In this document: positions 5,171-55,132 of the stretch, in pieces | How positions within the stretch are numbered: the first letter of the stretch is position 1 | Layout: every line of letters starts with the position of its first letter | From: a virus | Lineage: Duplodnaviria; Heunggongvirae; Uroviricota; Caudoviricetes | Direction: 5' to 3' (one strand) | Virus record (IMG/VR): IMGVR_UViG_3300029288_000055 | Coordinates: 160,001-224,000 of that record | Length of the DNA: 64,000 bases | Position numbers and translations under genes: made by a program | The notes under the pieces: model-generated | The model's input: only the letters and a program-made list of their open reading frames with translations | What the model was told of the DNA's origin: nothing | Databases searched by the model: none

Positions 5171-5722
5171 TTAAGTACCTTTTGTTTCACTTAAGAATGG
5201 CACAACGTCTTCCTTAACTGGTGTACCAGTTATACGTTTCCAATAAGGTTTAAATCCACCAATAGTTTTTTTGGTTTCATCTGTTACATTATTGGCACTA
5301 TCAATTTCATAATATCTGCTTTTTTCGCCACTCATATTATATTCAACAATATCACCACGATTAATTTCTAATTTTTTTTCTTCAAGTTCTTTAAGATATA
5401 CACCAAAACTAATATGACCAGTATCATCACGAGCAATACCCCCGGGGTTTGTACCATAATTTTCCTGTTTACCATCTTCAACATTTACCATTACTGATAT
5501 TCGAATTGGTGTTAAATATTTTTTATCTTTTGCTTTTGTTTGACCATAAAGTGCATGTGATTTAGTTTCAATAACATTAACTCTATGTATAATTACTTCT
5601 TGTGCATTATCAGTTTGCAAAAAATTTCTACCATACATAACATCAAGATCAAAGGATTCTTGGGTCATAAACATTCCATATCTTTGATTTTCAAGATCAA
5701 TTATTTGCTTTTTTTTCTTCAT
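5171..5722 (-). CDS. Neck / head-closure protein (T4 gp14-like)
   Basis: Follows the gp13-like gene; LYG..K..K....I and GDIV.Y......YYEI patterns. Confidence 0.55.
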   Translation of the reverse strand: MKKKKQIIDLENQRYGMFMTQESFDLDVMYGRNFLQTDNAQEVIIHRVNVIETKSHALYGQTKAKDKKYLTPIRISVMVNVEDGKQENYGTNPGGIARDDTGHISFGVYLKELEEKKLEINRGDIVEYNMSGEKSRYYEIDSANNVTDETKKTIGGFKPYWKRITGTPVKEDVVPFLSETKGT

Positions 5723-8235: not shown

Positions 8236-9720
8236 ATGAATCATAAACCAACTGCAGAACAGGAAAGAATTTTTTTATTTACAAAAAAACGTCCTGAGAA
8301 TATATTAATTAAGGCTTACGCAGGTACAGGCAAGACCACAACAATTGTTGAAGCAGTCAAATTGTTGCCTAAAGATAAAAGCATAATGTTTTTAGCATTT
8401 AATAAACATATTCAAGAAGAATTAAAAACAAAATTACCTGAATATGTCAGATGTTATACAACTTATGGTTTGGGTAATTCTGCAATTAAAAGAAAATATG
8501 GCGAAAGTATTCAATTTGATGAATTTAAAGCCGATAAAATCATTCAAAAAAAGGCAAAATCATGGGAATTGGAAGATGAATTTAAAGATGAAGAAGAAAT
8601 ATCTTTTTATCTTAATTTAATCAAAAAACTTTGTAATTTATGCAGATTAACATTAACCACTAAGCCAGAATATATTCCATATATTGCCGACAGGTATGAT
8701 ATTAACCTTAACAAACCCAAAGATATAAAGAGAGTACTTAAAGTATTAGATGAAATGAGTACTGACAGAAAAACTCTCGACTATACTGATATGATTTATC
8801 TCCCTGCAATTGATAATAGTATTTGGTTTTTTCCACAAGACTATGTATTTGTAGATGAAGTGCAGGATTTAAACCGTTGCCAGATAAGAATTGTCGAAAA
8901 AGTACTAAAAAAAGATAAATTAAGTGGTAAAACTACTGGTAGGTTAATTAGTGTAGGTGATTTCTTTCAGGGCATATATGGATTCAACGCTGCTGATGAA
9001 AAATCTTTCGAATGGTTTGAAAAATTCCCAAATACTAAAATTTTACCGCTTTCTGTATCTTTCAGATGTTCACAAAATGTCATAAAAGAGGCACAAAAGA
9101 TTGTACCTGATATCAAAGCACTACCTGATGCCCCAGATGGTCTTGTAAGAGATGGCAATGTGGTTAGTGAAGCACAAAGTGGTGATTTTATTCTTTGCAG
9201 AACAACCATGCCACTGGTAAAACTATTTTTTGAGTTCTTAACCCAAAAAAGAAAGGCAATAATCAAAGGAAGTGACATTGGATTACAATTAATTGAATTA
9301 ATTGGTCAAATTAATACTCTTGAAAAATTAGTTACATTTTGGAATGCTGAATTAACTAAATTTAAAAAAGATTTAAAAGCTGATGGTATATTAAATCCAT
9401 ATGAACATAGCGGATATAGCGCACTTGAAGATAAAGTAAGAACATTATTATTTTTGGCACAACTTGCAACTAATATTACTGATTTAAAAGCCAGTATTAA
9501 AACCATATTTACTGATGAAATTCAAGGTATTGTTCTCAGCACAGTGCATAAAATTAAAGGATTAGAAGCAAACAGAGTATTTATAATACGTTCTGACTTA
9601 TTACCAATGCGTAATGTTAAAGGTTGGCAATATATTCAGGAAAAAAATTTGGAATATGTTGCGGTGACTCGTGCAAAATTAGAATTAATTTATGATAGAA
9701 CTTGGACAGATGAAGAATAA
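8236..9720 (+). CDS. UvrD/Rep-family SF1 helicase
   Basis: AYAGTGKTT (Walker A), LAFNK, VDEVQDL, VGDFFQGIYGF, SFRC, STVHKIKGLE, YVAVTRAK. Confidence 0.93.
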   Translation: MNHKPTAEQERIFLFTKKRPENILIKAYAGTGKTTTIVEAVKLLPKDKSIMFLAFNKHIQEELKTKLPEYVRCYTTYGLGNSAIKRKYGESIQFDEFKADKIIQKKAKSWELEDEFKDEEEISFYLNLIKKLCNLCRLTLTTKPEYIPYIADRYDINLNKPKDIKRVLKVLDEMSTDRKTLDYTDMIYLPAIDNSIWFFPQDYVFVDEVQDLNRCQIRIVEKVLKKDKLSGKTTGRLISVGDFFQGIYGFNAADEKSFEWFEKFPNTKILPLSVSFRCSQNVIKEAQKIVPDIKALPDAPDGLVRDGNVVSEAQSGDFILCRTTMPLVKLFFEFLTQKRKAIIKGSDIGLQLIELIGQINTLEKLVTFWNAELTKFKKDLKADGILNPYEHSGYSALEDKVRTLLFLAQLATNITDLKASIKTIFTDEIQGIVLSTVHKIKGLEANRVFIIRSDLLPMRNVKGWQYIQEKNLEYVAVTRAKLELIYDRTWTDEE

Positions 9721-35017: not shown

Positions 35018-35680
35018 ATGAAGAATAATAGTACAAAAGAAAGATTGTTTGAAGTTATTGGTAGATTAGATAAAACATTTAAACCAATTGAAGATAAAAC
35101 AATTGCCACAACATATCAACTTGTCACACCCGAAAGTGCTGAAGCTGGTGATTTTTCAGATCAAGGCTGGGTAAATCAAGAAGGTGAATCAATGCTTCCT
35201 AATAAATATGAAATAGAAGAAGGTATAACAGTAGTTGATAAAGCAGTTAAATTTTTAAAAGATAATGGTGGTACTGAACCATCATCAAGTCAATTTCATG
35301 TTGGTGTATGGTATTCTACACCAGACCCAGATAGAGATTATAAATATATTCAAACTGGTGAAGAAAAATATTATTCATATCATTTAAAAGGATTTACTCT
35401 TGAAGAAGAAGCAGAAATTTATAAAAAAATTCAAGAAAAAGAAAAAATTATACCCGAACAACAAACAAATATGCAACAATCACAAGACGTAACATATACT
35501 GATAACACATATAAAGTAATTGCACCCATACTTAGAAGAGTTAGGACAGTTGATCAATTTCCTTTAGCATTTAAAGGTTGGTTTAGCTCATTGGGATATA
35601 ATCCACAATCATCACCACTTACAATAGCACAGGCAAGAATAATGGTTGAACAAGTTATGAGAGAATTAGGCTATAAATAA
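35018..35680 (+). CDS. Late protein of the RLFE-motif family
   Basis: MKNNSTKERLFEVIGRLDKTFKP; late motif at 34995. Confidence 0.7.
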   Translation: MKNNSTKERLFEVIGRLDKTFKPIEDKTIATTYQLVTPESAEAGDFSDQGWVNQEGESMLPNKYEIEEGITVVDKAVKFLKDNGGTEPSSSQFHVGVWYSTPDPDRDYKYIQTGEEKYYSYHLKGFTLEEEAEIYKKIQEKEKIIPEQQTNMQQSQDVTYTDNTYKVIAPILRRVRTVDQFPLAFKGWFSSLGYNPQSSPLTIAQARIMVEQVMRELGYK

Positions 35681-35781: not shown

Positions 35782-35856
35782 ATGAAAAATTTAATAAACA
35801 TAGTACCACAACCCCAACAGCATCCACAAAGTTTGGAATGGGGAAACTATGCTTAA
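35782..35856 (+). CDS. Attenuator leader peptide 1: MKNLINIVPQPQQHPQSLEWGNYA
   Basis: Eight consecutive Pro/Gln/His codons (35806-35829), followed by antiterminator, terminator and Pro/His/Gln tRNAs. Confidence 0.85.
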   Translation: MKNLINIVPQPQQHPQSLEWGNYA

Positions 35857-35918: not shown

Positions 35919-35943
35919 ATGGTGTTCGTTGAAATATTTTTAT

Positions 35944-36038
35944 CAGGGTGTGAGCGAGTTGGTTGAAGCTGCTGGTCTTGGAAACCAGTCACGACACAAA
36001 GGTGTTGTCGTGCGTGGGTTCGAACCCCACCACCCTGA
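35944..36038 (+). tRNA. tRNA-Pro(UGG) with long variable arm
   Basis: Acceptor CAGGGTG/CACCCTG with A73; anticodon arm CTGGT-cttggaa-ACCAG; GGTTCGAAC T-loop; about 25-nt variable arm. Confidence 0.8.
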
Positions 36039-36094
36039 CGTTAGAGGATTAACTATATATGACTGTACTTGGGACTGGCAAATTAGTAATATTT

Positions 36095-36800: not shown

Positions 36801-36848
36801 CTTTTTTAATGTTCTTTGATATTTCATAATTATTATTACCTTTGCAAA

Positions 36849-37625
36849 ATGTATTATGTAGTTCAGGAAAATGTATTCAGGGAAGAAAATTATGACAATT
36901 TAATATTGGCATTGGATAAACTTACCTTACCATATGAAATTGTCAAAGTTAAACCCTTTATTGAAACATTCAGAATACATACCAGAAGAAAAGATATCTT
37001 TCCTTTTGGTTCATTGAAAATGGCAAGAATATCAGCGAAACGTGGCTGGCGACCCGGTTCTCAAATGAATGCTAATCACGATTATTTGGTTTATCGTGAC
37101 TATTATAAAGAAAATCTTTTGAATTATGATTCACACATACAGAAATTTGGTGATGATTTTTTCAGTAAAGAAACGTTCTTTGCACGACCAACACAAGATA
37201 CGAAAGTATTTACAGGAAAGGTCTTTGACATGCAAGAATGGCGAGAATTTGTGGCATATTCTCTTACTAACGGTCATAGTACCTTATTGAATATTGACAC
37301 TGAAATTCAAATATGTTCAGTAAAAAAGATTCAACAAGAGATCAGGTTCTGGATTGTTAAAGGTGAAATTGTTACCGCAAGTCAATATAGACTTGGAAAC
37401 AGATTGGTGCTTAGTGAAAATGTTGATCAGGCAGCTTATGACTACTGTAAGAAAATGGTTGACATATTTCAATTGAACGATGCTTTTGTAATGGATTTAG
37501 CTTTAACTGAAAATGGATATAAAATCATTGAATGTGGTTGCATTAATTGCGCTGGATTTTATAAAGCAAATATGCAGAAACTTTTAATGAAACTTGAAGA
37601 TAGTTTTAATTGTCCTATGGTGTAA
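36849..37625 (+). CDS. ATP-grasp protein (R2K/DUF4343-like)
   Basis: FARP....K.F.G, E.RFWIV.G.IVT.S.Y, FVMDLA....G.KIIE.GC.N.AGFY. Start moved to ATG 36849, just after TACCTTTG at 36837-44. Confidence 0.75.
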   Translation: MYYVVQENVFREENYDNLILALDKLTLPYEIVKVKPFIETFRIHTRRKDIFPFGSLKMARISAKRGWRPGSQMNANHDYLVYRDYYKENLLNYDSHIQKFGDDFFSKETFFARPTQDTKVFTGKVFDMQEWREFVAYSLTNGHSTLLNIDTEIQICSVKKIQQEIRFWIVKGEIVTASQYRLGNRLVLSENVDQAAYDYCKKMVDIFQLNDAFVMDLALTENGYKIIECGCINCAGFYKANMQKLLMKLEDSFNCPMV

Positions 37626-37693: not shown

Positions 37694-37852
37694 ATGGTTA
37701 TGAGCAAATTAAGAGTAGGTAATAAACAAAATGCAATTCTAAATGGTGAATGGGCAGGACACATGCGCAAGTGGGGAAAATTCTTCACCGCCAAAATACG
37801 TAGAAATGTAGATAAGAAAATAATAAGAAACGAAATTAAAAATGAGCTATAA
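37694..37852 (+). CDS. Small basic protein (52 aa, MVMSKLRVGNK...GEWAGHMRKWGK)
   Basis: Manually read ORF overlapping the next start. Confidence 0.55.
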   Translation: MVMSKLRVGNKQNAILNGEWAGHMRKWGKFFTAKIRRNVDKKIIRNEIKNEL

Positions 37853-38216
37853 TCTATTCCTTGACGATTTTCGTGAACCAGAAGATGCATTTAATCACAC
37901 AAATAATCAATTATATTTAATTGGTTGGGTTGTTGTTCGTAATTATAATGAATTTGTAAAAGCAATTGAAGAAAAGGGTATTCCTGAAATGATTTCATTT
38001 GATCATGATCTTGCGGATGAACACTATGAATCTTATAAACAATATGGCGAGTATAAAGAAAAGACTGGTTTTCATTGTGCTAAATGGTTTATCAATTATT
38101 GTATTGACAACAAAAAAGAACTTCCAGCAACAATTCTTATACATTCAATGAATCCTGCTGGAAGTGCTAATATTAAATCTTTGTTCGATACTTATAATAA
38201 ATATTTCAGAATTTAA
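37842..38216 (+). CDS. Cyclic-phosphate-processing receiver-like domain protein
   Basis: LFLDD.R.P, VVRNY.EF, ISFDHDL, TG..CAKW, IHSMNPAG. Confidence 0.75.
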   Translation: MSYNLFLDDFREPEDAFNHTNNQLYLIGWVVVRNYNEFVKAIEEKGIPEMISFDHDLADEHYESYKQYGEYKEKTGFHCAKWFINYCIDNKKELPATILIHSMNPAGSANIKSLFDTYNKYFRI

Positions 38217-39212
38217 TTATCTTCTTCCTGAACTACCATTACTACCCGAACTCCTGCCACCGCTTGAGCCAGAGCCACTTGAACTATTCGAGTTATTTGA
38301 ATAATTTGAACTTCTACTGTTGCTAAAATTACTTGAACCACCTGAATTATAACTTCTTGATGGAGTGTTATTATTGCTTCTTGAGGGCACAGAATAAGTA
38401 CGTGTTTGAGTACTTCTTTGTGTATTTGGTTGTGAATAAGTACGTGTTTGTGTAGTTGTTTCCACTCTTCTATTAGTTGTAACACCTATTCTACTATTAT
38501 TATATTGTGGACGAGTATTTAAACGTGGATTTTCATAAGAAGGTGTATATGTTCTCCTATTTTCTTGATAAATTGCTCTATTTTGTGGACTGGTAGTACG
38601 TTTTTCTTGTGGTACAACTCTTTGTATATTGTTATTATATGTGCTTGATAATGTTGATGGTCTTTCTCTACGACCATATCTACCACTCCAATTATGATTA
38701 TTACTATATCTCCAAGGACTCCAGTAATTATATCCAAAATAAAAATTATTGTAATACCAAGGACTGTACCAGTTTCTCATAAATCTAAATTCCCAATACC
38801 AATCATAGCTATCATACATCCAATAATTCCCAAAATAAAAATTGTTATAAAAATAATAAGGATTGTCATACATCCAATAATTAAATCCATTATGATAAAA
38901 TCTTCCTATATTATATGAATAAAAGAAAGGGTCATAATTATATTCATATATAATTTTAATTTCAGAATTGTACTTTATAAGAGTATCTACAACCTCATTA
39001 ACATCATTTATTTTTTGTTTTTTAATCTTTTTAGCATCTTTACTTGGTTGATAATAAAGGTCATCATATTCTGGTTTATCAGATACAACTGTTTGATTAT
39101 TATTTATTGAATCTTCTCTTGCTTGCCAATACTTCTCATAATTGGACTTTTTTTGTGCCGATAAAATACTTGTTAAAAGTATAAGGCAAATAATTATTAG
39201 TAATCTTTTCAT
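38217..39212 (-). CDS. Secreted protein with signal peptide, Tyr/Asn/Trp-rich middle and Ser/Arg/Gly-rich tail
   Basis: MKRLLIIICLILLTSILSAQ signal peptide, YDDLYY motif, low-complexity regions. Confidence 0.7.
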   Translation of the reverse strand: MKRLLIIICLILLTSILSAQKKSNYEKYWQAREDSINNNQTVVSDKPEYDDLYYQPSKDAKKIKKQKINDVNEVVDTLIKYNSEIKIIYEYNYDPFFYSYNIGRFYHNGFNYWMYDNPYYFYNNFYFGNYWMYDSYDWYWEFRFMRNWYSPWYYNNFYFGYNYWSPWRYSNNHNWSGRYGRRERPSTLSSTYNNNIQRVVPQEKRTTSPQNRAIYQENRRTYTPSYENPRLNTRPQYNNSRIGVTTNRRVETTTQTRTYSQPNTQRSTQTRTYSVPSRSNNNTPSRSYNSGGSSNFSNSRSSNYSNNSNSSSGSGSSGGRSSGSNGSSGRR

Positions 39213-39304
39213 AGTTTCATATATTATATTGCAATAGTATAAATAGCAATATCCGTACCAAAGTTTTTTTAACTTTGCTGTGTATTTATTATAAATTTCA
39301 CATT

Positions 39305-39688
39305 ATGAGCAAACGTGCCACAAAAGAAAGACTTTTCGAAGTTACTGGTAGACTTGATAAAACATTTAAAATAATAAATGAAGAAGTTGCACCTGAAAAT
39401 ATTGCGGTTTCATCACTTGGTGGTGTTGTTGAAAAAACTGATCTTAATGAAGCATCATCAAAATCACCAATTAATTTATATGTATATTTTGCATATAATT
39501 TTCCAAGCAATTTTATTGAAAAAACATGGGCAAATAACCCAAACATAATGGAACATTTGAAAAACAAGTTCAATGGATACTATACCAAATATGGTGCTGA
39601 AGGGGTAATGAACAGATTTTATGTTGAATTAGATATCGAGAATCAAAGAATTTTAGAAGATTGGATATTACATAATTATAGCGGATAA
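39305..39688 (+). CDS. Late protein of the RLFE-motif family
   Basis: MSKRATKERLFEVTGRLDKTFKIINEE; late motif at 39282; start moved to 39305. Confidence 0.7.
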   Translation: MSKRATKERLFEVTGRLDKTFKIINEEVAPENIAVSSLGGVVEKTDLNEASSKSPINLYVYFAYNFPSNFIEKTWANNPNIMEHLKNKFNGYYTKYGAEGVMNRFYVELDIENQRILEDWILHNYSG

Positions 39689-39708
39689 TAAAAATAAAAT
39701 AATTAACT

Positions 39709-40038
39709 ATGAAAACAACAGATAACAAACAAAGACTTTTCGAAGTCTTGGGTAAAATAGACCCAACATTTAAACCAAGTGCACAACTTCTTACCGAATG
39801 GAACTTTGATAAGAAAAAAGGTGAAAACAAAGAAGAAGATAAAGACGAAGATGAAAAAGACAGCAAGAAAAAATTCAACTTCGAAAAAAAAGAAGATAAA
39901 GAATCCAAAAAACATGAGGAAGTTGAAAGTCCTGAAGAAGAAAAAGAAGAACATGAAGATAAAAAAGAATTAAAAGAAGCCGATGCACCTGCAGCAAAAA
40001 AAATACCTGTTAATGCAATAGCTAAAGTTGGTAAATAA
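39709..40038 (+). CDS. Highly charged (K/E/D) protein of the RLFE-motif family
   Basis: MKTTDNKQRLFEVLGKIDPTFKPSAQLLTE. Confidence 0.7.
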   Translation: MKTTDNKQRLFEVLGKIDPTFKPSAQLLTEWNFDKKKGENKEEDKDEDEKDSKKKFNFEKKEDKESKKHEEVESPEEEKEEHEDKKELKEADAPAAKKIPVNAIAKVGK

Positions 40039-40088
40039 GATAGAATTATTCTAAATAACATTATTTTGTGAATTTTTTTACGAAAAGA

Positions 40089-40118
40089 TTTGTATTTATG
40101 AAAAATTGATTATCTTTG
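40089..40118 (+). promoter_or_regulatory. Promoter of tRNA cluster 2 (TTTG-N18-TATCTTTG with embedded GTATTTAT)
   Basis: Same architecture as 35717-35747. Confidence 0.75.
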
Positions 40119-40152
40119 CAAAGATATTTAAAACAAATTATGATTTAAAACG

Positions 40153-40245
40153 ATGAAAAATTTATTCGACATATTGGTAGCAGTCCTCATGGTGGATGTC
40201 CTATTATGGGCAGCCGAAGAGGATGATCTATGCGTAGTCGGGTAA
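40153..40245 (+). CDS. Attenuator leader peptide 2: MKNLFDILVAVLMVDVLLWAAEEDDLCVVG
   Basis: 22 of 30 residues are L/V/D/A/E/W, matching the downstream tRNAs; the 3' end is the antiterminator strand. Confidence 0.82.
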   Translation: MKNLFDILVAVLMVDVLLWAAEEDDLCVVG

Positions 40246-40282
40246 TACTTTGAATATTACAACCTCCTTTCTTATAAAAAAG

Positions 40283-40316
40283 AAACCCGACTACCCTAAA
40301 TTTAGTCGGGTTTTTT
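40283..40316 (+). terminator. Attenuator terminator 2
   Basis: AAACCCGACTA-ccctaaatt-TAGTCGGG then TTTTTT; the 5' arm pairs 10/10 with GTAGTCGGGT at 40234-43. Confidence 0.88.
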
Positions 40317-40356
40317 GTTTTTAGTGGTTGTAGGTTCTTTGACATGTTGGAATTTT

Positions 40357-40435
40357 GGTGCTGGGGTCTGCTTGGTGTGGACGCATGACTGTCACTCATG
40401 ATATCAGGAGGGTTCGATTCCCTTCAGCACCGCCA
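40357..40435 (+). tRNA. tRNA-Asp(GUC)
   Basis: GGTGCTG/CAGCACC acceptor, G73 and CCA; CATGA-ctgtcac-TCATG. Confidence 0.9.
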
Positions 40436-40544
40436 TTCTCAACCGAAAGCAAGTAGGTTACTGGTGAAGCGGAGATCGTGACTCCAACCTTGATGGTTCG
40501 TTCCTGAGAGGGCATGGTTGCAAAAAACAGTTTGGGGATATTTT

Positions 40545-40617
40545 CGAGGCTGTGGTGTAATGGCTAACATACCTGACTGTCACTCAGGTGTCTGGGGTTC
40601 GAGTCCCCCGGTCTCGG
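40545..40617 (+). tRNA. tRNA-Asp(GUC)
   Basis: CCTGA-ctgtcac-TCAGG; GGTTCGAGTCC T-arm; slightly irregular T/acceptor junction. Confidence 0.82.
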
Positions 40618-40794
40618 CACATTTTTACTGCCAAAGCAGTAAAAAATAAAAATTTGAGGTAAAAAGTATCGTTAATATCACTTTTTTATTTACTTTTACC
40701 GTTTTGGCAGTAAAAAACGACTATTTGTTAAGAAATAATAATTTGTTTCAAATAAAGTGCATTATTTTGCACTAAATAAATTAATAAAGTATTT

Positions 40795-41397
40795 ATGAAT
40801 ATGAATGAAAATATTATATATGGTTTAAAAGACCCAAGGACTGATGAATATAAGTATGTTGGTAAATCAATAAAAGGAATCGAAAGAGCAAACTCACACT
40901 TAACACATTCTCATAATCCATTGGTTAATGAGTGGATTAATGAACTTAAAATGGATAGTTATGTTCCACTTGTTGTTATTTTGGAAAATGTTTCTGATTG
41001 GACACAATTGATCGATAAAGAAAAATATTGGGTCGGGAAATTAACCGATGAAGAACACGATTTATTTAACATTTTAATTACAGATTCATATAACAATACG
41101 CTGGATTCCTATAATAAGAAATTGATACAACAAATAAAAGATAGGGAAAAAGTGTTAAATGAAAAGTTAAATAAATCATTAATGCAATTCGGTAGTGAAT
41201 CAGATGTTGGTGATTTAATAAAAAGAAGACGTAAAACTCTAAAAGTAACACAACAACAACTTGCAGATATTTCTGGGGTTGGGTTACGAACAATAAAACT
41301 AATTGAATTAAACAAATCAAATGCGACTATTAATACTTTAATGAAAATATTTGATACTTTAGGTTATGAACTTTTCATTAACTTAAAAACAAAATAA
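40795..41397 (+). CDS. GIY-YIG-like endonuclease fused to a C-terminal XRE HTH
   Basis: IYGLKDPR...YKYVGKS...RA..H...E..W; C-terminal RR..L.VTQQQLA..SGV...TI..IE. Confidence 0.7.
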   Translation: MNMNENIIYGLKDPRTDEYKYVGKSIKGIERANSHLTHSHNPLVNEWINELKMDSYVPLVVILENVSDWTQLIDKEKYWVGKLTDEEHDLFNILITDSYNNTLDSYNKKLIQQIKDREKVLNEKLNKSLMQFGSESDVGDLIKRRRKTLKVTQQQLADISGVGLRTIKLIELNKSNATINTLMKIFDTLGYELFINLKTK

Positions 41398-41400
41398 TAT

Positions 41401-41483
41401 GCTGCGTTATACAAGCGACTAAAGTAGACAGACCTTCAATCTGTCATCGAAAGATTTCGTGGGTTTGAATCCCACACGCAGTA
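41401..41483 (+). tRNA. tRNA-Glu(UUC), C33, long variable arm
   Basis: GCTGCGT/ACGCAGT acceptor; ACAGA-ccttcaa-TCTGT; T-loop TTTGAAT. Confidence 0.7.
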
Positions 41484-41580
41484 CGATGTTGAGGTGGTAT
41501 TACACGGGGAAAAGAAAGTCCCTGCTGATAATCTAAAAAATGTGGACAGCATGTGGGTATAAATCCCGCCAACTACACCT

Positions 41581-41652
41581 GCTCGATTCTTCTAATGGAA
41601 AGGAAAGCTGACTCTCAATCAGTTAACGGCAGTTCGATTCTGCCATCGAGTA
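41581..41652 (+). tRNA. tRNA-Glu(CUC)
   Basis: GCTCGAT/ATCGAGT acceptor; GCTGA-ctctcaa-TCAGT. Confidence 0.88.
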
Positions 41653-41657
41653 CAAAT

Positions 41658-41732
41658 GCTCGGTTCGTCTAAGGGTTAGGATGTAAGACCTTCAATCTTA
41701 AAATACGGGTTCGATTCCCGTACCGAGTACCA
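41658..41732 (+). tRNA. tRNA-Glu(UUC), C33
   Basis: GCTCGGT/ACCGAGT acceptor with ACCA; TAAGA-ccttcaa-TCTTA. Confidence 0.88.
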
Positions 41733-41847
41733 AAATGGGGCATAAAAACCCCAGATGTTAAGTAAATGGGGAAAATATGCCCCATACTACAAAAATGTAG
41801 TATATTATCAACAAAAATGCCAGTTATGATGATAATATACAACAAAT

Positions 41848-41936
41848 GCACTTTTAGCTCAGTCTGGTTCAGAGCGCAACCCTTACAAGGTTGAGGCGAA
41901 TAGTTCACGGGGGTTCGAATCCCTCAAAGTGCACCA
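41848..41936 (+). tRNA. tRNA-Val(UAC) with extended variable region
   Basis: GCACTTT/AAAGTGC acceptor with ACCA; CAACC-cttacaa-GGTTG. Confidence 0.88.
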
Positions 41937-41938
41937 AT

Positions 41939-42014
41939 GCTCTTTTAGCTCAGTTGGGTCAGTAGCGTCTGTTTTACAAGCAGAAGGTCGTAGGTTCGAA
42001 GCCTACAGGGAGCA
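41939..42014 (+). tRNA. tRNA-Val(UAC)
   Basis: GCTCTTT/AGGGAGC acceptor; TCTGT-tttacaa-GCAGA. Confidence 0.88.
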
Positions 42015-42126
42015 CAAAGGTCCGCACACAGGGGCGGACCTTAAATATAGGTAAAATAACCGATATAATGCATTTATCGGTTGTAGAGGCGATAAAGAGT
42101 ATTTATCGTGTGTAGAATGCATAAAC

Positions 42127-42208
42127 GTCCATATGTTGTAATTGGTAGCCAAGCTGGTCTAAGAAGCCAGTGCCGTAAGGCGTGTCGGTTCGACTCCGAC
42201 TATGGACA
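42127..42208 (+). tRNA. tRNA-Leu(AAG)
   Basis: GTCCATA/TATGGAC acceptor with A73; CTGGT-ctaagaa-GCCAG; long variable arm. Confidence 0.88.
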
Positions 42209-42217
42209 CAACAAAAC

Positions 42218-42292
42218 GCAGGTGTAGCCGAATGGTCAAGAGGCAGCAGTTTTAGAAACTGAAATTTGCGGGTTCGACTCCCGCCACCTGTA
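42218..42292 (+). tRNA. tRNA-Leu(UAG), short variable loop
   Basis: GCAGGTG/CACCTGT acceptor; CAGT-tttagaa-ACTG. Confidence 0.82.
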
Positions 42293-42357
42293 CAAACGTT
42301 CTCTTTGAGTAGTAATATTCATTAAATTTGGTAGCAATATCAAGTAGGGAACACCAA

Positions 42358-42433
42358 GCGGATGTGCTGGAACTGGTATACGGGTTGGCTTCAGACACCA
42401 ATATTAATGAGGGTTCGAGTCCCTTCATCCGCA
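42358..42433 (+). tRNA. tRNA-Leu(CAG), short variable loop
   Basis: GCGGATG/CATCCGC acceptor; TTGGC-ttcagac-ACCAA. Confidence 0.78.
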
Positions 42434-42511
42434 CCGACCTTATTCTGGATAACGAAGCAAATAGTTCCAGACACTCAGTCCTGAAGTCATGGTTCAGGAG
42501 TAAGGACAACT

Positions 42512-42584
42512 GCCCCGTTGACGTAATCGGCAACCGTATCAGTCTTAAAAGCTGAGTTTCACAGTTCGAATCTGTGACGGGGTA
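42512..42584 (+). tRNA. tRNA-Leu(UAA), short variable loop
   Basis: GCCCCGT/ACGGGGT acceptor; TCAGT-cttaaaa-GCTGA. Confidence 0.82.
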
Positions 42585-42588
42585 CAAA

Positions 42589-42789
42589 GGTGAATGCTGT
42601 TACTTATTTGCAGTAGTAACACCACCTGTGCCGAATAACTTGTAGAGAGGAAAGTAGTACTTTTCAATACTTTGTGGATTGCAAATATACATTGGTTGAG
42701 TTATTAAAAAGGCACACACGGGCGTAAGAGTAATTCTCTGTAAGTCGGGTTGATCACCGAAGTAGGTTAAAATCCTACTACGTTCACCA
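42589..42789 (+). ncRNA. Putative ~200-nt structured RNA with tRNA-like acceptor stem and T-arm
   Basis: GGTGAATG/CGTTCACC-A end pairing, AGTAGG-ttaaaat-CCTACT, several internal hairpins; sits between two tRNAs. Confidence 0.5.
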
Positions 42790-42790
42790 C

Positions 42791-42864
42791 GGGGTCGTGG
42801 CTCAATTGGCTAAAGCATCTGCCTTGCACGCAGAGGACTGTGGGTTCGAGTCCCACCGACTCCA
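42791..42864 (+). tRNA. tRNA-Ala(UGC)
   Basis: GGGGTCG/CGACTCC acceptor with G3:U70; TCTGC-cttgcac-GCAGA. Confidence 0.92.
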
Positions 42865-42901
42865 CAAACAAAGGTCCGCAAATATTTGCGGACCTTTACT
42901 T

Positions 42902-42975
42902 GGGGCATTCGCTTAGTTGGCTAAAGCATCTGTTTTGCAAGCAGAAGATCGTGGGTTCAACTCCCACATGCTCCA
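42902..42975 (+). tRNA. tRNA-Ala(UGC)
   Basis: GGGGCAT/ATGCTCC acceptor with G3:U70; TCTGT-tttgcaa-GCAGA. Confidence 0.9.
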
Positions 42976-43092
42976 CACAATCCATAATAATAAGGCAAGT
43001 AACAAATCTTGTGTTCGTGGGAACAACATGTCCGTGCGTGCGCAGGGATAAATTGGTTGATGCTCCAATCGTGCCCACGAAGGGTTGCACTT

Positions 43093-43179
43093 GTAGGTGT
43101 ATTCCGTAATGGCGAAATTGGTTATGTCATCCATGTAACAAGGGTTGGAATGTTAGAGGTTCGAGTCCTTTCATCTACA
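43093..43179 (+). pseudogene. Degenerate tRNA, anticodon not assignable
   Basis: GTAGGTG/CATCTAC acceptor and AGAGG-ttcgagt-CCTTT T-arm; irregular core. Confidence 0.5.
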
Positions 43180-43185
43180 CAAACA

Positions 43186-43264
43186 ACGGATTTAACATAG
43201 TGGCAAGTGTTGCACCTTAAGTCCTGCGTGGCTGGTAACGGTGGTTCGATTCCATCAATCTGTT
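43186..43264 (+). pseudogene. Degenerate tRNA (possibly Leu-derived)
   Basis: ACGGATT/AATCTGT acceptor, GGTGG-ttcgatt-CCATC T-arm; broken anticodon stem around CTTAAG. Confidence 0.45.
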
Positions 43265-43273
43265 GTTAAAAAT

Positions 43274-43356
43274 ACGCAAGTTGCCGAGTGGTTAAAGGCA
43301 CGGGTCTCCAAAACCCGCAGAGAAATCTTTCGTGGGTCCAAATCCTACCTTGCGTG
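43274..43356 (+). tRNA. tRNA-Trp(CCA) with long variable arm
   Basis: ACGCAAG/CTTGCGT acceptor with G73; CGGGT-ctccaaa-ACCCG; atypical T-loop. Confidence 0.72.
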
Positions 43357-43367
43357 CAAATTAAAAT

Positions 43368-43439
43368 GCGTCTGTCGTCTAATGGCTAAGACAACGGCTT
43401 CCAAACCCGTGAATAAGGTTTCGATTACTTTCAGACGTG
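43368..43439 (+). tRNA. tRNA-Trp(CCA)
   Basis: GCGTCTG/CAGACGT acceptor with G73; ACGGC-ttccaaa-CCCGT (one mismatch). Confidence 0.7.
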
Positions 43440-43490
43440 CTAAAATCAGATAATTATGAAAACGCAAAAAGCAATGTGCATCCTAAAAGG

Positions 43491-43907
43491 ATGCTTACCA
43501 GAGAAGAAAAAAGACGTAGAAGACATAGTGATGAATTCAACAGAATTTTCACATTTTTCTTAAAGTCTTATCGCTACAAAATACTTGATTTTTCAGGTAT
43601 TGAAGTGAAAACAAATATGGACATTAATGAAGACGATGGTAAAGTCTGTTTCAAAAATTTTGACAACGGTGAATACAAAAGCATGAATTCAATGCCAACC
43701 AGACATCCAAACATATTGAAGGGTGTAATTGTTGGAAAAAAATCATGGGGTTTACATGTAAAGATGTGGTCTGAAGGTATCTCCGAAGGTACATTTACCA
43801 AAAGAGAAATCTTACAACAATTTATAGATAATAAGATTGAAATACCAGAGCCATTTCTAATTGATCTTGATAACACAATATTAAAGAAATTTCGAATGAA
43901 GCAATAG
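43491..43907 (+). CDS. Hypothetical protein
   Basis: The track start overlaps a tRNA; ATG 43491 is preferred. Confidence 0.6.
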   Translation: MLTREEKRRRRHSDEFNRIFTFFLKSYRYKILDFSGIEVKTNMDINEDDGKVCFKNFDNGEYKSMNSMPTRHPNILKGVIVGKKSWGLHVKMWSEGISEGTFTKREILQQFIDNKIEIPEPFLIDLDNTILKKFRMKQ

Positions 43908-44048
43908 TAAAAATCGCAGGTATGTACTGCAGGTTGGCGTTCTATCCAAAAGAACTAAAAGCACAATTACCACTGAGGGCAGTTAATTCTGTACCCAAGA
44001 GCAATATCAGTTAGCAGTACACTATTGTTTCAAAAAATTAGAATATTT

Positions 44049-44076
44049 TGTAACTTTTTGGTTTTTTCTTCGTATA
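44049..44076 (+). promoter_or_regulatory. ECF-sigma-like promoter TGTAAC-N16-CGTATA
   Basis: Identical hexamers and spacing to the copy at 27086-27113 on the - strand. Confidence 0.55.
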
Positions 44077-44376
44077 AAGAGTATTAATTTAATAAGAAAG
44101 GAGCAAGTCTTCAAAACACGAATTAAATACAGAGGATGTTGGTGGTGGAAAATTGTACATTACAATTATTTTCATAAGAAACTTTTTAAAAATTTTTATG
44201 TACAAAAGAAAAAGAAACCATTTACCAATAGAGAAATTAAAAAATATGAACTATATAAAAAATTCGATGATTTAATTACATTGAGACGAGTGGATTGGTT
44301 AAGAAAGTTTATATTTCTCATTGAGCCATAAATTTTCAGTATTTATTTGTAACATTTTTAATTAAAAATTATAATA

Positions 44377-44769
44377 ATGAAAAAAATATTATCATTACTT
44401 TTATTACTGGTATCCTTGACAGCTTTTTCACAGAGACATCAACACGAAAAATACTATCAGGATAAGTTTGCTGAATTAATTTATGGAAGAACAGAAGTTG
44501 TTCTTGATGACAGGGCACGTGTTGATATTGTAACTGATACATTTGCAATTGAAGTTGATTTTGCACCTAAATGGGCAGAAAGTATCGGTCAATCTTTGTA
44601 TTATGCTGAAAAACTTCACAAAAAAGCAGGTGTTTTATTGATAATAAAAGGAAATGACGATCAAAGATATACTGAAAGATTAATTACTATCGCAAAAAAA
44701 TATAATATTACTATTTGGTTTATAGACTATACATCTGAAAAATGGAAGACGAAAAAATTTATATTTTAA
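44377..44769 (+). CDS. Signal-peptide-bearing protein with PD-(D/E)XK-like nuclease fold
   Basis: MKKILSLLLLLVSLTAFS signal; E...RVDIV....AIEVDF..KWAESIGQSLYY. Confidence 0.6.
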   Translation: MKKILSLLLLLVSLTAFSQRHQHEKYYQDKFAELIYGRTEVVLDDRARVDIVTDTFAIEVDFAPKWAESIGQSLYYAEKLHKKAGVLLIIKGNDDQRYTERLITIAKKYNITIWFIDYTSEKWKTKKFIF

Positions 44770-46982: not shown

Positions 46983-47346
46983 GGGGATGACTTGGCTTTG
47001 ACTGAATGGTCAGACTGGTAACGTAAGCAAGTAGTAGTTGAATCAGACTACTTTAAAAAGGTTCAAAACAATAGATGAAGACATAATGTCTATCCCAACT
47101 TCTCTCACGAGAGGTAAAAGCGTTTTTGTAAGAAGTGCAGAACTTCAAATCGCTGCGTAAGCAAGGGACACGAAAAAATTTGCACAAAAGTTCCTAACTT
47201 GAAGGGAAGGTAAACAAATTCAAGACAGTTTTGTAGTTATTCTGGAATAATACAACTAATATTTCGCTGGCTTAGAAAAACCAGATAAACTTGTAGAAAA
47301 CTTATTACTCGCATTCAAGACGGGGGTTCAACTCCCCCCATCTCCA
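46983..47346 (+). ncRNA. ssrA: tmRNA
   Basis: 5' GGGGATGACTTGGCTTTGAC and 3' GACGGGGGTTCAACTCCCCCCATCTCCA; acceptor GGGGATG/CATCTCC with G3:U70; internal tag frame ends ...ELQIAA* at 47160. Confidence 0.9.
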
Positions 47347-47361
47347 CTAATTTGAATTATT

Positions 47362-47784
47362 ATGGAAAATTATAATTGGGAAAAAACTGGTATGTTAGAA
47401 GGATTAACGGGTAATACTCGTGAAACCGTTATAAAACTTTTTAAAGAAATTGACTTCAAATCAATACCAGAAATTAAAGATTCTGTTGGTGTAGACACAC
47501 TCATTTGTCCAGTAATAAGACGAATAGTTTCAGTAATCACGCCTGATAATTTACTGGTTCAAAACAGTATCATTAAAGATCATTCAAGAGAAATTACAGA
47601 AGAAGACGTGCTTCCATTGATTGATGTAAAAGAAATAACAGAACTATTGATTGAATATGTTCGTGTTTTTATTCCATACGCAGAAAAATATTTACCAGAC
47701 CTTGACGCACAAGCGGAAATGTGCTTATTGTTTTGTGATAATTATGTAATGAAACTGATTGGTAGAACTGGAAAATGGAAATAA
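47362..47784 (+). CDS. Protein resembling the N-terminus of the major capsid protein
   Basis: WEKTGMLEGL.GN.RE....LF...T...PVIRRI versus MCP WEKIGLLEGL.GN.KE....LF...T...PVIRRV. Confidence 0.7.
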   Translation: MENYNWEKTGMLEGLTGNTRETVIKLFKEIDFKSIPEIKDSVGVDTLICPVIRRIVSVITPDNLLVQNSIIKDHSREITEEDVLPLIDVKEITELLIEYVRVFIPYAEKYLPDLDAQAEMCLLFCDNYVMKLIGRTGKWK

Positions 47785-51276: not shown

Positions 51277-52295
51277 AAGAAAAAAACGGCTTATTAATTA
51301 ATGAAAATTACTGGCGTAATATGTCGCCAATGGAATTAGAAAATTTTGCTCAGAAAATTTTTATACATTACAGAGAAAATGGTTTTCCTTATTATCCAAC
51401 AGATATTGAAATAAGACAAAAAGATTTTGAGCAGTTAATGAATTATGATTTCAAAGCGTTATTTGAAAATAATATAATAAAGCAATCGATGCATGGTCTT
51501 GGACTTGCGTGGTCATATTTTCCACACTCATTCAATGTCAGGTCAAATGATAAAATGACTCCATATGAAGCATTTATGGATGATGAAATTTTCATAAAAG
51601 TCATCAAAAAACGTTTACAGATGGGTACATATATATCAGACTCTGGCATAAGAAAGATGTTGAAAATATTTACGGGCGTACAGGGAGTATCGAATTTCAG
51701 ACCAACAGCAGCAGCATGCATTTATAATACGTTTGCTAAAGACGGTGTAGTTTGGGATATGTCAGGTGGTTGGGGTGGAAGATTGCTGGGGGCAATTGCT
51801 GGTGGGGTTCAGAACTATATTACGACTGAACCTTCAGAGTTAACACATAAAGGCTTGACAGAAATGGCTTATTGTTTTTGTCCCAAAGGCATGGATTACA
51901 TGATCTTGAAAATGGGAAGTGAAGTATTTAGACCAGACAAGAACAGCTTAGATTTGTGTTTCACATCACCGCCATATTTTGATCTTGAAAAATATAGTGA
52001 AGAACCTTCACAGAGCTATATCAAATTTAATACGAAAGATACATGGGTTGAAGGATTTTTGAGACCAACATTTAAAAATTCTTATTATGGATTAAAACAA
52101 GGTGGATATATGTTGATTAATATTGCTGATGTAAAAGGCAAACACAATGTTAATTTGGAATGGGAAACTATTATAACTGCAGAAAGTATTGGTTTTACAC
52201 ATGAAAACACGCTTCAATTAGCACTTTCAAATGTAAATTTGCGTGATAAAGGAAAGAAGTTTAAGTATGAACCTATTTATGTATTTAAGAAATGA
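51273..52295 (+). CDS. DNA amino-methyltransferase (N4-C / N6-A type)
   Basis: WDMSGGWGGRLLG (motif I) then FTSPPYF (motif IV), LKQGG. Confidence 0.85.
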   Translation: MKEKNGLLINENYWRNMSPMELENFAQKIFIHYRENGFPYYPTDIEIRQKDFEQLMNYDFKALFENNIIKQSMHGLGLAWSYFPHSFNVRSNDKMTPYEAFMDDEIFIKVIKKRLQMGTYISDSGIRKMLKIFTGVQGVSNFRPTAAACIYNTFAKDGVVWDMSGGWGGRLLGAIAGGVQNYITTEPSELTHKGLTEMAYCFCPKGMDYMILKMGSEVFRPDKNSLDLCFTSPPYFDLEKYSEEPSQSYIKFNTKDTWVEGFLRPTFKNSYYGLKQGGYMLINIADVKGKHNVNLEWETIITAESIGFTHENTLQLALSNVNLRDKGKKFKYEPIYVFKK

Positions 52296-53377
52296 AAATG
52301 TTAGAAAAAATTGATTGGAAGGTTCTCTGCACATATGTAGAAAATAGCCTCATTATTGCAAACAAACATCCAGAATTGGATATTTGGATACTTAATTATT
52401 CTCCAAAAGTTCAGTCAAAAAAGTTCTGGGATGAATATACCTTATCTTGTCGTGGATTGGTAATTGATGCTGAAGGTAACATCTTAGCTCGTCCATTCGA
52501 AAAGTTCATGAATTACGAAGAATATGACCCATCAGAAATTGACTGGTCAAAGGACTTTGATGTATTCGAAAAAATGGATGGTTCATTGATTATTATATTT
52601 TATTATGAACCAAGAATGAAATGGATAGTAGCTTCCAGAGGGTCATTTATTTCTGAACAAGCACTTGAAGCACAAAAAATGATTACAGTTACAGATTATG
52701 GCAAACTGGATATTGAATACACATATCTATTTGAAGCAATTTATCCAGAAAACCGAATCGTTGTTAATTATGGTAATAGAAGAGAACTTGTGTTACTTAC
52801 CAAAATTAATACAAATACTGGTGCTGAAATAAATAACGATGAATTGGTTAACAAGTATTCAAAGCATTTTACAGTTGTGAAGAAATTTCAACTTAAATCA
52901 TTTGATGAATTAAAACAATTAATAAAAAATGGTGAAGATAATAGTGAAGGTTTTGTTATTAGATTCTCTGATGGCTTAAGATTAAAAATGAAATTTGCTG
53001 AATACTGCAGATTGCATGCAATATTAACAAATGTTTCTAATTTAACTGTTTGGGAACATTTGATAAATAATTATGATTTTGATGCATTATATGACAGAGT
53101 TCCAGATGAATTTTACAACTGGCTAAAAAGAACAATAAAAGCAATACAGTCAGAATTCAATGAGATCGAAAGAAAAGCATTGAAAGAATTCATTAGAATT
53201 TACTATGTAAATGGAATTACTGTTCGTAAGGATTTCGCAATGGAAGCGATAAAAACAGAATACCAGTCAATATTATTTAAATTGTACGACAAAAGATCAT
53301 ATGATGAAATCATTTGGAAATTAGTGCGACCAGTTTACAGTAAGCCGTTTCGAGACGGTTTTGAATATAGCATATAA
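52292..53377 (+). CDS. RNA ligase, T4 Rnl1-like
   Basis: CRGLV, ARPF.KF.N, EKMDGSL (adenylated Lys), SRGSF, FE.I.PENRIVV.Y, EGFV, K.K..EY. Confidence 0.9.
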   Translation: MKMLEKIDWKVLCTYVENSLIIANKHPELDIWILNYSPKVQSKKFWDEYTLSCRGLVIDAEGNILARPFEKFMNYEEYDPSEIDWSKDFDVFEKMDGSLIIIFYYEPRMKWIVASRGSFISEQALEAQKMITVTDYGKLDIEYTYLFEAIYPENRIVVNYGNRRELVLLTKINTNTGAEINNDELVNKYSKHFTVVKKFQLKSFDELKQLIKNGEDNSEGFVIRFSDGLRLKMKFAEYCRLHAILTNVSNLTVWEHLINNYDFDALYDRVPDEFYNWLKRTIKAIQSEFNEIERKALKEFIRIYYVNGITVRKDFAMEAIKTEYQSILFKLYDKRSYDEIIWKLVRPVYSKPFRDGFEYSI

Positions 53378-54843: not shown

Positions 54844-54936
54844 ATGAGAACATTTGGTACATATTATTACGGTAAAAAATCTTATAAGAAACAGCTTATA
54901 GGAATCGGGAATACTATGACCAAAGGTAAAATATAA
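54844..54936 (+). CDS. Attenuator leader peptide 3: MRTFGTYYYGKKSYKKQLIGIGNTMTKGKI
   Basis: 8 of 10 codons at 54862-54891 are Tyr/Lys; followed by antiterminator, terminator and Lys/Tyr tRNAs. Confidence 0.85.
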   Translation: MRTFGTYYYGKKSYKKQLIGIGNTMTKGKI

Positions 54937-54965: not shown

Positions 54966-54992
54966 AACCCGATTCGCAAGATCGGGTTTTTT
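54966..54992 (+). terminator. Attenuator terminator 3
   Basis: AACCCGAT-tcgcaag-ATCGGG then TTTTTT; CCCGATTC pairs 8/8 with GAATCGGG at 54902-09. Confidence 0.85.
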
Positions 54993-55132
54993 GTTTTGCA
55001 TAAAAACGTATATTGTTGCATAAAAACTCTTAGAATATGAAAAACAGGTATAAAAAGGCATATTTCATGAAAAACGTTTATTACCCGTGAAAAACGTTTA
55101 AAAAACAGTATGTTTCATGAAAAACGGGTTTT

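Follow-up and report, generated by a model that had tools for sequence, protein, structure and literature searches.

A short leader ORF and a terminator precede fifteen tRNA genes

We analysed a 64,000-nucleotide (nt) stretch of viral DNA (hereafter the window; IMG/VR virus record IMGVR_UViG_3300029288_000055, positions 160,001 to 224,000), focusing on a short open reading frame (ORF), the intrinsic terminator behind it and the tRNA gene cluster that follows. The window corresponds to C1:160001-224000, where C1 is a 362,763-bp contig of 30.5% G+C. The ORF, which we call the leader, lies on the plus strand at 40153-40245 and has 30 codons from ATG to TAA, with the control codons at about codons 8-25 (40174-40227). 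The terminator consists of a 14-bp stem (40280-40293/40303-40316) with a 9-nt loop and a U tract that extends to 40322, with a predicted energy of -18.2 kcal/mol. It was missed by our consensus scan, whose loop limit was 8 nt. The spacing from the terminator to the first tRNA gene is 40 nt.

The tRNA genes are on the same strand. ARAGORN predicted 15 of them between 40357 and 43440, namely two tRNA-Asp, three tRNA-Glu, two tRNA-Val, four tRNA-Leu, two tRNA-Ala and two tRNA-Trp, in agreement with a preliminary description of the locus made from the sequence alone. In order, these are tRNA-Asp(GTC) at 40357-40435 and 40545-40618, tRNA-Glu at 41401-41484 (TTC), 41581-41653 (CTC) and 41658-41732 (TTC), two tRNA-Val(TAC) within 41848-42015, four tRNA-Leu (AAG, TAG, CAG and TAA) within 42127-42585, two tRNA-Ala(TGC) within 42791-42976, and tRNA-Trp(CCA) at 43274-43357 and 43368-43440. 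Rfam confirmed all of these except the tRNA-Glu at 41401-41484, which was found by ARAGORN only. The six isotypes, which we refer to as the cargo of the leader, are exactly those in which the leader peptide is rich.

The composition of the leader is as the preliminary description had counted it: six Leu, six Val, four Asp, three Ala, two Glu and one Trp make up 22 of its 30 residues. The six cargo amino acids represent 0.32 of the residues in the long ORFs of this phage, so that 9.4 would be expected among the 29 residues after the start, compared with the 22 observed (binomial P = 1.8e-6). Only two of the 1941 short ORFs on C1 have a cargo fraction as high as that of the leader, and this leader alone contains an uninterrupted run of at least 13 cargo residues. 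Its synonymous codons are as diverse as originally noted (Leu TTA, TTG, CTC and CTA; Val GTA, GTC and GTG). Several are rare in the phage, with relative usages of 0.05 for GTC (three occurrences), 0.04 for CTA (two), 0.03 for CTC, 0.05 for GCC and 0.09 for GAG, and the codon set as a whole is rarer than any drawn in 20,000 synonymous resamplings. The leader samples eight of the ten cargo anticodons, an excess over synonymous resampling that is not significant (P = 0.25).

The leader transcript has alternative antiterminator and terminator pairings

Four regions of the leader transcript were defined by folding. Region 1 (40162-40170, codons 4-6) is a candidate anti-antiterminator, which in untranslated RNA pairs with region 2 (at 40237-40245) in the minimum free energy (MFE) fold. 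Region 2 (40234-40245) comprises the last three codons and the stop codon, and forms the 5' arm of the antiterminator. Region 3 (40280-40294) is the 5' arm of the terminator and is common to the antiterminator, while region 4 (40303-40322) contains the 3' arm of the terminator (40303-40316) and the U tract (40311-40322). The pairing of 10 out of 10 nucleotides that had been pointed out between regions 2 and 3 was borne out, since GTAGTCGGGT (40234-40243) and ACCCGACTAC (40285-40294) are perfectly complementary and form a 10-bp helix in folding.

Free RNA folds as the 1:2 helix, inner hairpins over the control codons and the 3:4 terminator, with a total of -52 kcal/mol, and the start codon of the leader remains unpaired in the MFE fold. 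The 2:3 antiterminator (-17.0 kcal/mol) is nearly isoenergetic with the terminator. Kinetics must therefore decide between the two, as they do in classical attenuators. To model this choice, we truncated the transcript after region 3, as it would be before synthesis of region 4, and folded it with the ribosome footprint masked. This partial transcript was adopted because equilibrium folding of the full-length masked transcript gave the terminator at most positions. In this in silico model, the full 10-bp antiterminator forms when the A site is at any of codons 1-23, forms partially at codons 24-25 and is impossible (0 bp) from codon 26 to the stop. All six cargo amino acids have codons within the permissive zone of codons 1-23. 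The masking geometry therefore suggests that slow decoding would favour read-through, and that fast decoding or the absence of translation would favour termination. Both the direction and the size of such a response are predictions.

A putative Bacteroidota-type promoter lies upstream of the leader on the plus strand (40089-40118). It was found by a pattern match with a -33 TTTG (40089-40092), an 18-nt spacer and the -7 box TATCTTTG (40111-40118), and it overlaps a copy of the phage motif GTATTTAT at 40092-40099. The pattern follows the literature consensus of Bacteroidota promoters, and the start site of transcription is presumed from the same consensus. The pattern is not enriched in the window (seven found, 6.3 expected), and the case for this candidate promoter is that the pattern occurs next to the leaders and is conserved. 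A sigma-70 consensus scan of 39900-44400 found fewer promoter-like sites than in shuffled sequences.

The spacer between the terminator and the first tRNA gene contains the 12-nt element GTTCTTTGACAT (40334-40345, plus strand), which resembles the boxA of rrn operons. It is identical in all five orthologs although the sequence on either side varies, and comparable elements lie behind other units of the same kind. GTTCTTTGACAT is not enriched across the window when two mismatches are allowed. It may keep the polymerase processive through the untranslated tRNA array. BoxA-like elements in the same position, between a terminator and the first tRNA gene, were also observed at 35924-35935 and C1:226238-226248.

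The leader and its pairings are conserved among orthologs

Orthologous leaders are found upstream of the same cargo in the loci L001 (identical), L002, L003, L018 and L004, the last of which has a neighbouring protein that is 61% identical. The -7 box is invariant in five orthologs, and the control codons, including their synonymous sites, and regions 1 to 4 are kept. Insertions and deletions in the ORF are in frame, with three nucleotides gained in L003 and three lost in L004. Across the five orthologs, 93.5% of the pairs of the fold derived from the window (the 1:2 helix, the inner hairpins and the terminator) can form, compared with 38-48% when the partners are slid. Helix 1, between regions 1 and 2, is paired in 88% of the cells and helix 5, the terminator, in 95.7%. 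L003 contains a coordinated change of T to C in region 2, A to G in region 3 and T to C in region 4, which keeps both the 2:3 and the 3:4 pairings.

Four leaders on the contig are each matched to their own tRNAs

The phage contains three sibling units with an identical order of parts. Their leaders precede Pro, His and Gln tRNAs (leader at 35782-35856), Lys and Tyr tRNAs (54844-54936), and Thr, Cys, Asn, Ile, Ser, Phe, Gly and Arg tRNAs (C1:226051-226185, just past the window). Each of the four leaders on C1 is enriched in its own cargo set only, and all four end in TAA. The first 15 nt around the start codon are common to leaders 1 and 2, the latter being the leader studied here, which suggests a duplication followed by reprogramming of the codons. 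The ORFs at 35018-35680, 39305-39688 and 39709-40038, just 5' of these two leaders, are paralogs that have an N-terminal motif of about 20 residues in common. In the third unit, a 140-nt spacer (54990-55132) separates the terminator from the first tRNA-Lys gene and contains several copies of a ATGAAAAACG-like motif.

We determined how specific the antiterminator arm is by looking for an upstream complement to the 5' arm of each terminator. Only four of the 60 terminator-like sites on C1 have such a complement of at least 8 nt (11, 10, 8 and 8 nt), and the remainder have at most 6 nt. These four are exactly the terminators that precede tRNA clusters. On the other contigs of the bin that contains C1, none of the 42 tRNA genes has a terminator within 200 nt upstream.

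The match between leader and cargo extends across a phage family

We next surveyed the C1 segment together with 15 IMG/VR loci and 80 loci from a metagenome scan that was seeded with the family of a 156-amino-acid (aa) protein encoded 3' of the cluster. For every terminator at most 200 nt upstream of a tRNA gene, an ORF with an ATG start that ended nearby was taken regardless of its composition. The summed enrichment of leaders in the amino acids of their cargo reached z = 76.1 over 25 dereplicated units. When the cargo was permuted the mean was 7.3 (standard deviation 7.1) and the maximum 41.2, so that none of 100,000 permutations attained the observed value. A frame test on 22 units gave z = 77.7 in frame compared with -4.8 and -7.0 in the +1 and +2 frames and -9.0 on the antisense strand. 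Since the match to the cargo exists only in the frame of the ORF, the triplets are probably read in the phase of that ORF.

The pairing is likewise found across the family. The segment of the upstream 120 nt that pairs best with the 5' arm of the terminator outperforms shuffled sequences in 24 of the 25 units (mean z = -2.8), and in most units this duplex has its end within the final 1-35 nt of the ORF. Units with other cargo have leaders to match, including L023 (Ser, His, Thr and Ile), L093 (Gln alone) and L064 (about fifteen isotypes). In L010, the cargo of the unit studied here is split between a leader at 5587-5661 before Cys, Val and Leu tRNAs and another at 8550-8639 before Phe, Glu, Asp and Ala tRNAs. 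The same design of leader, terminator and tRNAs was found in the published huge-phage genomes LR756501 and LR756502. In LR756502 (L097:12425-13265), two attenuators stand in series. The outer leader represents both tRNA blocks in its amino acids, and the inner leader chiefly represents the block that follows it (Ile, Gly and Ala).

The preliminary description had considered a leader for six amino acids exceptional. Six does exceed the number covered by the known published multivalent leaders. Within this family it is ordinary, given the eight isotypes of the sibling unit and the approximately fifteen of L064.

A leader-peptide attenuator is the most probable interpretation

We interpret the locus as a ribosome-mediated, multivalent transcription attenuator of the leader-peptide type that gates a phage tRNA operon, and give this reading a probability of roughly 80%. 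It had been proposed at the outset, and it is supported by a putative promoter, an accessible start codon, codons matched to the cargo, mutually exclusive antiterminator and terminator helices, and an antiterminator arm that would lie under a ribosome at the stop codon. Host RNA polymerase would start at the Bacteroidota-type promoter and transcribe the 30-codon leader, which we presume to be translated. If the Leu, Val, Ala, Asp, Glu and Trp codons are read fast, the ribosome would reach the last codons and the stop and cover region 2, the terminator would form and transcription would stop before the tRNA genes. If charged tRNA is scarce for any of the control codons, many of which are rare in the phage, reading would be slow and the ribosome would stall upstream. 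Region 2 could then pair with the 5' arm of the terminator, and the polymerase would enter the Asp-Glu-Val-Leu-Ala-Trp tRNA genes. New tRNAs would speed up translation of the leader and close the gate, which amounts to negative feedback. Without translation, region 1 would pair with region 2 and the terminator would form.

Several observations weigh against this reading. Covariation among five similar orthologs has little power, and shuffled data performed equally well in 257 of 500 cases. L004 has a weaker 2:3 pairing with a core of 5 bp. As described above, equilibrium folding of the full transcript under ribosome masks mostly still yields the terminator. The codons do not follow the cargo in every detail, since the leader lacks a CTG codon although the cluster has a tRNA-Leu(CAG), and the L018 cluster lacks tRNA-Val, yet its leader keeps Val codons.

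The last point concerns promoters inside the cluster. The preliminary description had cautioned that internal promoters might drive most of the tRNAs and listed copies of GTATTTAT near 40789 and 42089. The first is present at 40789 and the second is located at 42099, not 42089 (42099-42106, plus strand). The caution stands, as the latter copy is conserved and lies 28 nt before tRNA-Leu(AAG), where it is a candidate phage-type promoter. C1 contains 119 copies of GTATTTAT, mostly 20-60 nt upstream of start codons, and the window has 34 where seven are expected, so this motif is probably a phage-specific promoter element. The copies at 40789 and 42099 may thus drive part of the cluster independently. 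The copy at 42099 is kept in L001, L002 and L018 and absent from L003 and L004; Leu, Ala and Trp codons are nonetheless present in the leaders of these two. A second, stage-specific input may therefore act on the downstream half of the cluster. A terminator scan of C1:190000-240000 found nothing between the attenuator terminator and a weak site at window position 47705, and the consensus scan of 39900-44400 found a single weak plus-strand site inside the cluster (43240-43256, five pairs).

Of the other explanations, the one that survives best, which we nevertheless regard as unlikely, accepts the switch as real and takes its signal to be general amino-acid starvation or overall translation capacity, as a check on the coupling of ribosome and polymerase, with feedback from phage tRNAs being incidental. 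A leader peptide senses charged tRNA, so that a lack of tRNA and a lack of amino acid are the same to the sensor, as in the trp and his attenuators, and almost every amino acid is represented in one or other of the four units. The leaders are, however, partitioned in composition unit by unit according to cargo, for which a general sensor would have no need, and rare codons that are read by isoacceptors encoded by the phage (CTA, CTC and GAG) are used.

We consider it very improbable that the ORF encodes a stable hydrophobic microprotein with a promoter and terminator of its own, while the tRNAs are driven from other promoters. The N-terminal half of the peptide is indeed hydrophobic and its tail acidic, and the GTATTTAT motifs inside the cluster would provide the promoters. 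Sibling and related leaders are hydrophilic, yet have the same architecture and match to their cargo. In addition, the 40 nt from the terminator to the first tRNA gene contain no match to the promoter pattern, and the antiterminator arm is specific to terminators that precede tRNA clusters.

Just as small a chance is given to an RNA that is not translated and makes direct contact with tRNAs, as T-boxes do, or to a small RNA, with the triplets read by anticodons rather than by ribosomes. Direct codon-anticodon contacts would also be compatible with the triplet-phase match to the cargo anticodons. The ATG start, the in-frame stop and the in-frame insertions and deletions fit translation instead, as does an antiterminator arm located where a terminating ribosome would cover it. 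T-box models and other Rfam families gave no match to the leader region at the gathering score, nor at E-values up to 10 beyond noise driven by the terminator. Finally, short ORFs are common in AT-rich DNA, as the 1941 on C1 illustrate, but a chance ORF beside an ordinary terminator is rejected separately by the composition, cargo permutation, antiterminator-arm specificity, duplex-versus-shuffle and frame tests, and its likelihood is negligible.

Other elements of the tRNA cluster

The cluster contains two items beyond those in the preliminary description. One is an inserted ORF (40795-41397, plus strand), which is preceded by its own GTATTTAT at 40789. It has an HTH_3 C-terminus and, by eye, a GIY-YIG-like N-terminal motif, and is absent from L002. 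The other is a tRNA-like gene with an 8-nt anticodon loop (43185-43265, plus strand), for which ARAGORN gave the anticodon 'taag' and Rfam 33.7 bits. It is conserved (L001:4665-4745) and could be a frameshift-type or a decayed tRNA. The weak terminator-like site at 43240-43256 lies within its T arm.

We also observed that the class-I tRNAs Pro, Glu, Val and Trp each have one copy of 84-96 nt (35944-36039, 41401-41484, 41848-41936 and 43274-43357) with a copy of normal length beside it. In the ARAGORN structures, the long Glu, Val and Trp copies have an extended variable region.

The source is probably a huge phage of Bacteroidota

C1 encodes 55 tRNA genes and one tmRNA. The tmRNA is located at 46983-47349 (Rfam, 101 bits) and is kept in L001, L002, L004, L005 and L009. 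The other contigs in the bin of C1 have a G+C content of 33-52%. C1 further encodes a ribonucleotide reductase, and three other proteins are interspersed with the tRNA clusters: a T4 Rnl1-type RNA ligase (52292-53377), a cREC_REC (cyclic-phosphate processing receiver) domain protein (37842-38216) and an R2K ATP-grasp protein (36816-37625). The three together point to a theme of RNA repair. A tRNA with a CTA anticodon, a TAG suppressor labelled 'Pyl' by ARAGORN, was found beyond the window (C1:237313-237385) and hints at stop-codon recoding in this phage. Such recoding has been reported for Lak-type megaphages.

A megablast search of window positions 39000-44000 against deposited phages gave no match. 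The 156-aa ORF (43437-43907) starts at the last bases of the tRNA-Trp gene at the 3' end of the cluster and may be co-transcribed with the tRNA array. It has no family in Pfam or PHROG, a search of the Atlas yielded no usable match, and its AlphaFold model is poor (mean pLDDT 51). The protein has an invariant motif around residues 100-116. We confirmed 127 relatives in metagenomes, of which 80 were kept, and in the 13 IMG/VR loci whose upstream sequence is long enough, tRNA genes are found within 10 kb upstream of the match. Its relatives are encoded on IMG/VR contigs of up to 676 kb and in LR756501 (735 kb) and LR756502 (642 kb). Genomes over 634 kb were all placed in the Mahaphage clade, with Bacteroidetes as predicted hosts (PMC7162821). 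Because the relatives of the 156-aa protein are in genomes of Mahaphage size, we take the source to be a huge uncultured phage, with a host that probably belongs to Bacteroidota.

The attenuators may form a genome-wide tRNA homeostat

We tentatively extend the attenuator reading to the genome as a whole, at somewhat less than even odds for the proposal with all its parts. The four attenuators, of which the one studied here is the second, might together constitute a tRNA homeostat, an inducible answer to tRNA depletion that could be widespread in Bacteroidota-infecting huge phages of the Mahaphage clade. Each attenuator would act as an OR gate for the isotypes that follow it, and the four would cover 19 of the 20 amino acids, with tRNA-Met lacking a leader of its own. 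Depletion might be caused by host anticodon nucleases or by the phage's own host shut-off, and the homeostat might work with the boxA-like element and with the Rnl1-type RNA ligase and tmRNA encoded nearby.

Usually, tRNA genes are described as being under growth-rate or stringent-response control, not attenuation. No description of tRNA genes controlled by a leader-peptide attenuator came up in full-text literature searches, and one candidate prior description (PMC3082878) proved irrelevant. Large-phage tRNA arrays have been discussed as a means of compensating for codon usage or host tRNA cleavage (for example PMC12409363, on PARIS/AriB, and PMC7162821, on huge phages). The words attenuat-, leader and terminator do not occur in the huge-phage paper (PMC7162821), and the abstract of PMC12409363 describes no regulation of phage tRNA genes. 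C1 resembles these arrays in its large tRNA set, and it also has an Rnl1-type RNA ligase and a tmRNA. The unit would thus represent a known mechanism applied to a target, tRNA genes, that we did not find published.

If our reading is correct, the virus appears to gauge the speed of decoding at individual codons and to produce the corresponding tRNAs as needed. This would account for the way in which huge phages handle tRNA sets of at least 50 genes, and would link phage tRNA arrays with ongoing research on defence systems that target tRNA. Such a leader would, moreover, be a naturally occurring sensor of tRNA supply that is compact and programmable. For genome annotation of huge phages, leader sequences could help by predicting which tRNAs share a transcription unit.

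Comparison with known attenuators

The enterobacterial multivalent attenuators include the thr leader, which responds to Thr and Ile, and the ilvGMEDA leader, which responds to Ile, Leu and Val. The phage unit is like these in its short ORF rich in regulatory codons, its alternative 1:2, 2:3 and 3:4 pairings and its intrinsic terminator, and by analogy stalling at the codons of any of several amino acids should give read-through. It differs from them in regulating tRNA genes instead of biosynthetic enzymes, in the number of amino acids (six here and eight in the sibling unit) and in its location in a phage, behind a putative Bacteroidota-type promoter. The Rfam amino-acid leader families (Thr, Trp, His and Leu) gave no match at the gathering score; at a relaxed threshold the sole leader-family match was to Thr_leader (13 bits, E-value 6.1), which was rejected as it is on the wrong strand.

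The nearest relative in logic is the pheM leader of Escherichia coli pheST, which attenuates an aminoacyl-tRNA synthetase operon. In both cases, a leader-peptide attenuator would adjust a component of the translation machinery to the level of charged tRNA. Unlike the phage leader, pheM senses a single amino acid and regulates a protein enzyme, whereas here the product would be the sensed molecule itself, resulting in a direct feedback loop. T-boxes also sense the status of tRNA and switch between terminator and antiterminator before translation-related genes. A T-box, however, is untranslated and binds one uncharged tRNA, whereas the phage unit has an ORF whose match to its cargo is specific to the reading frame.

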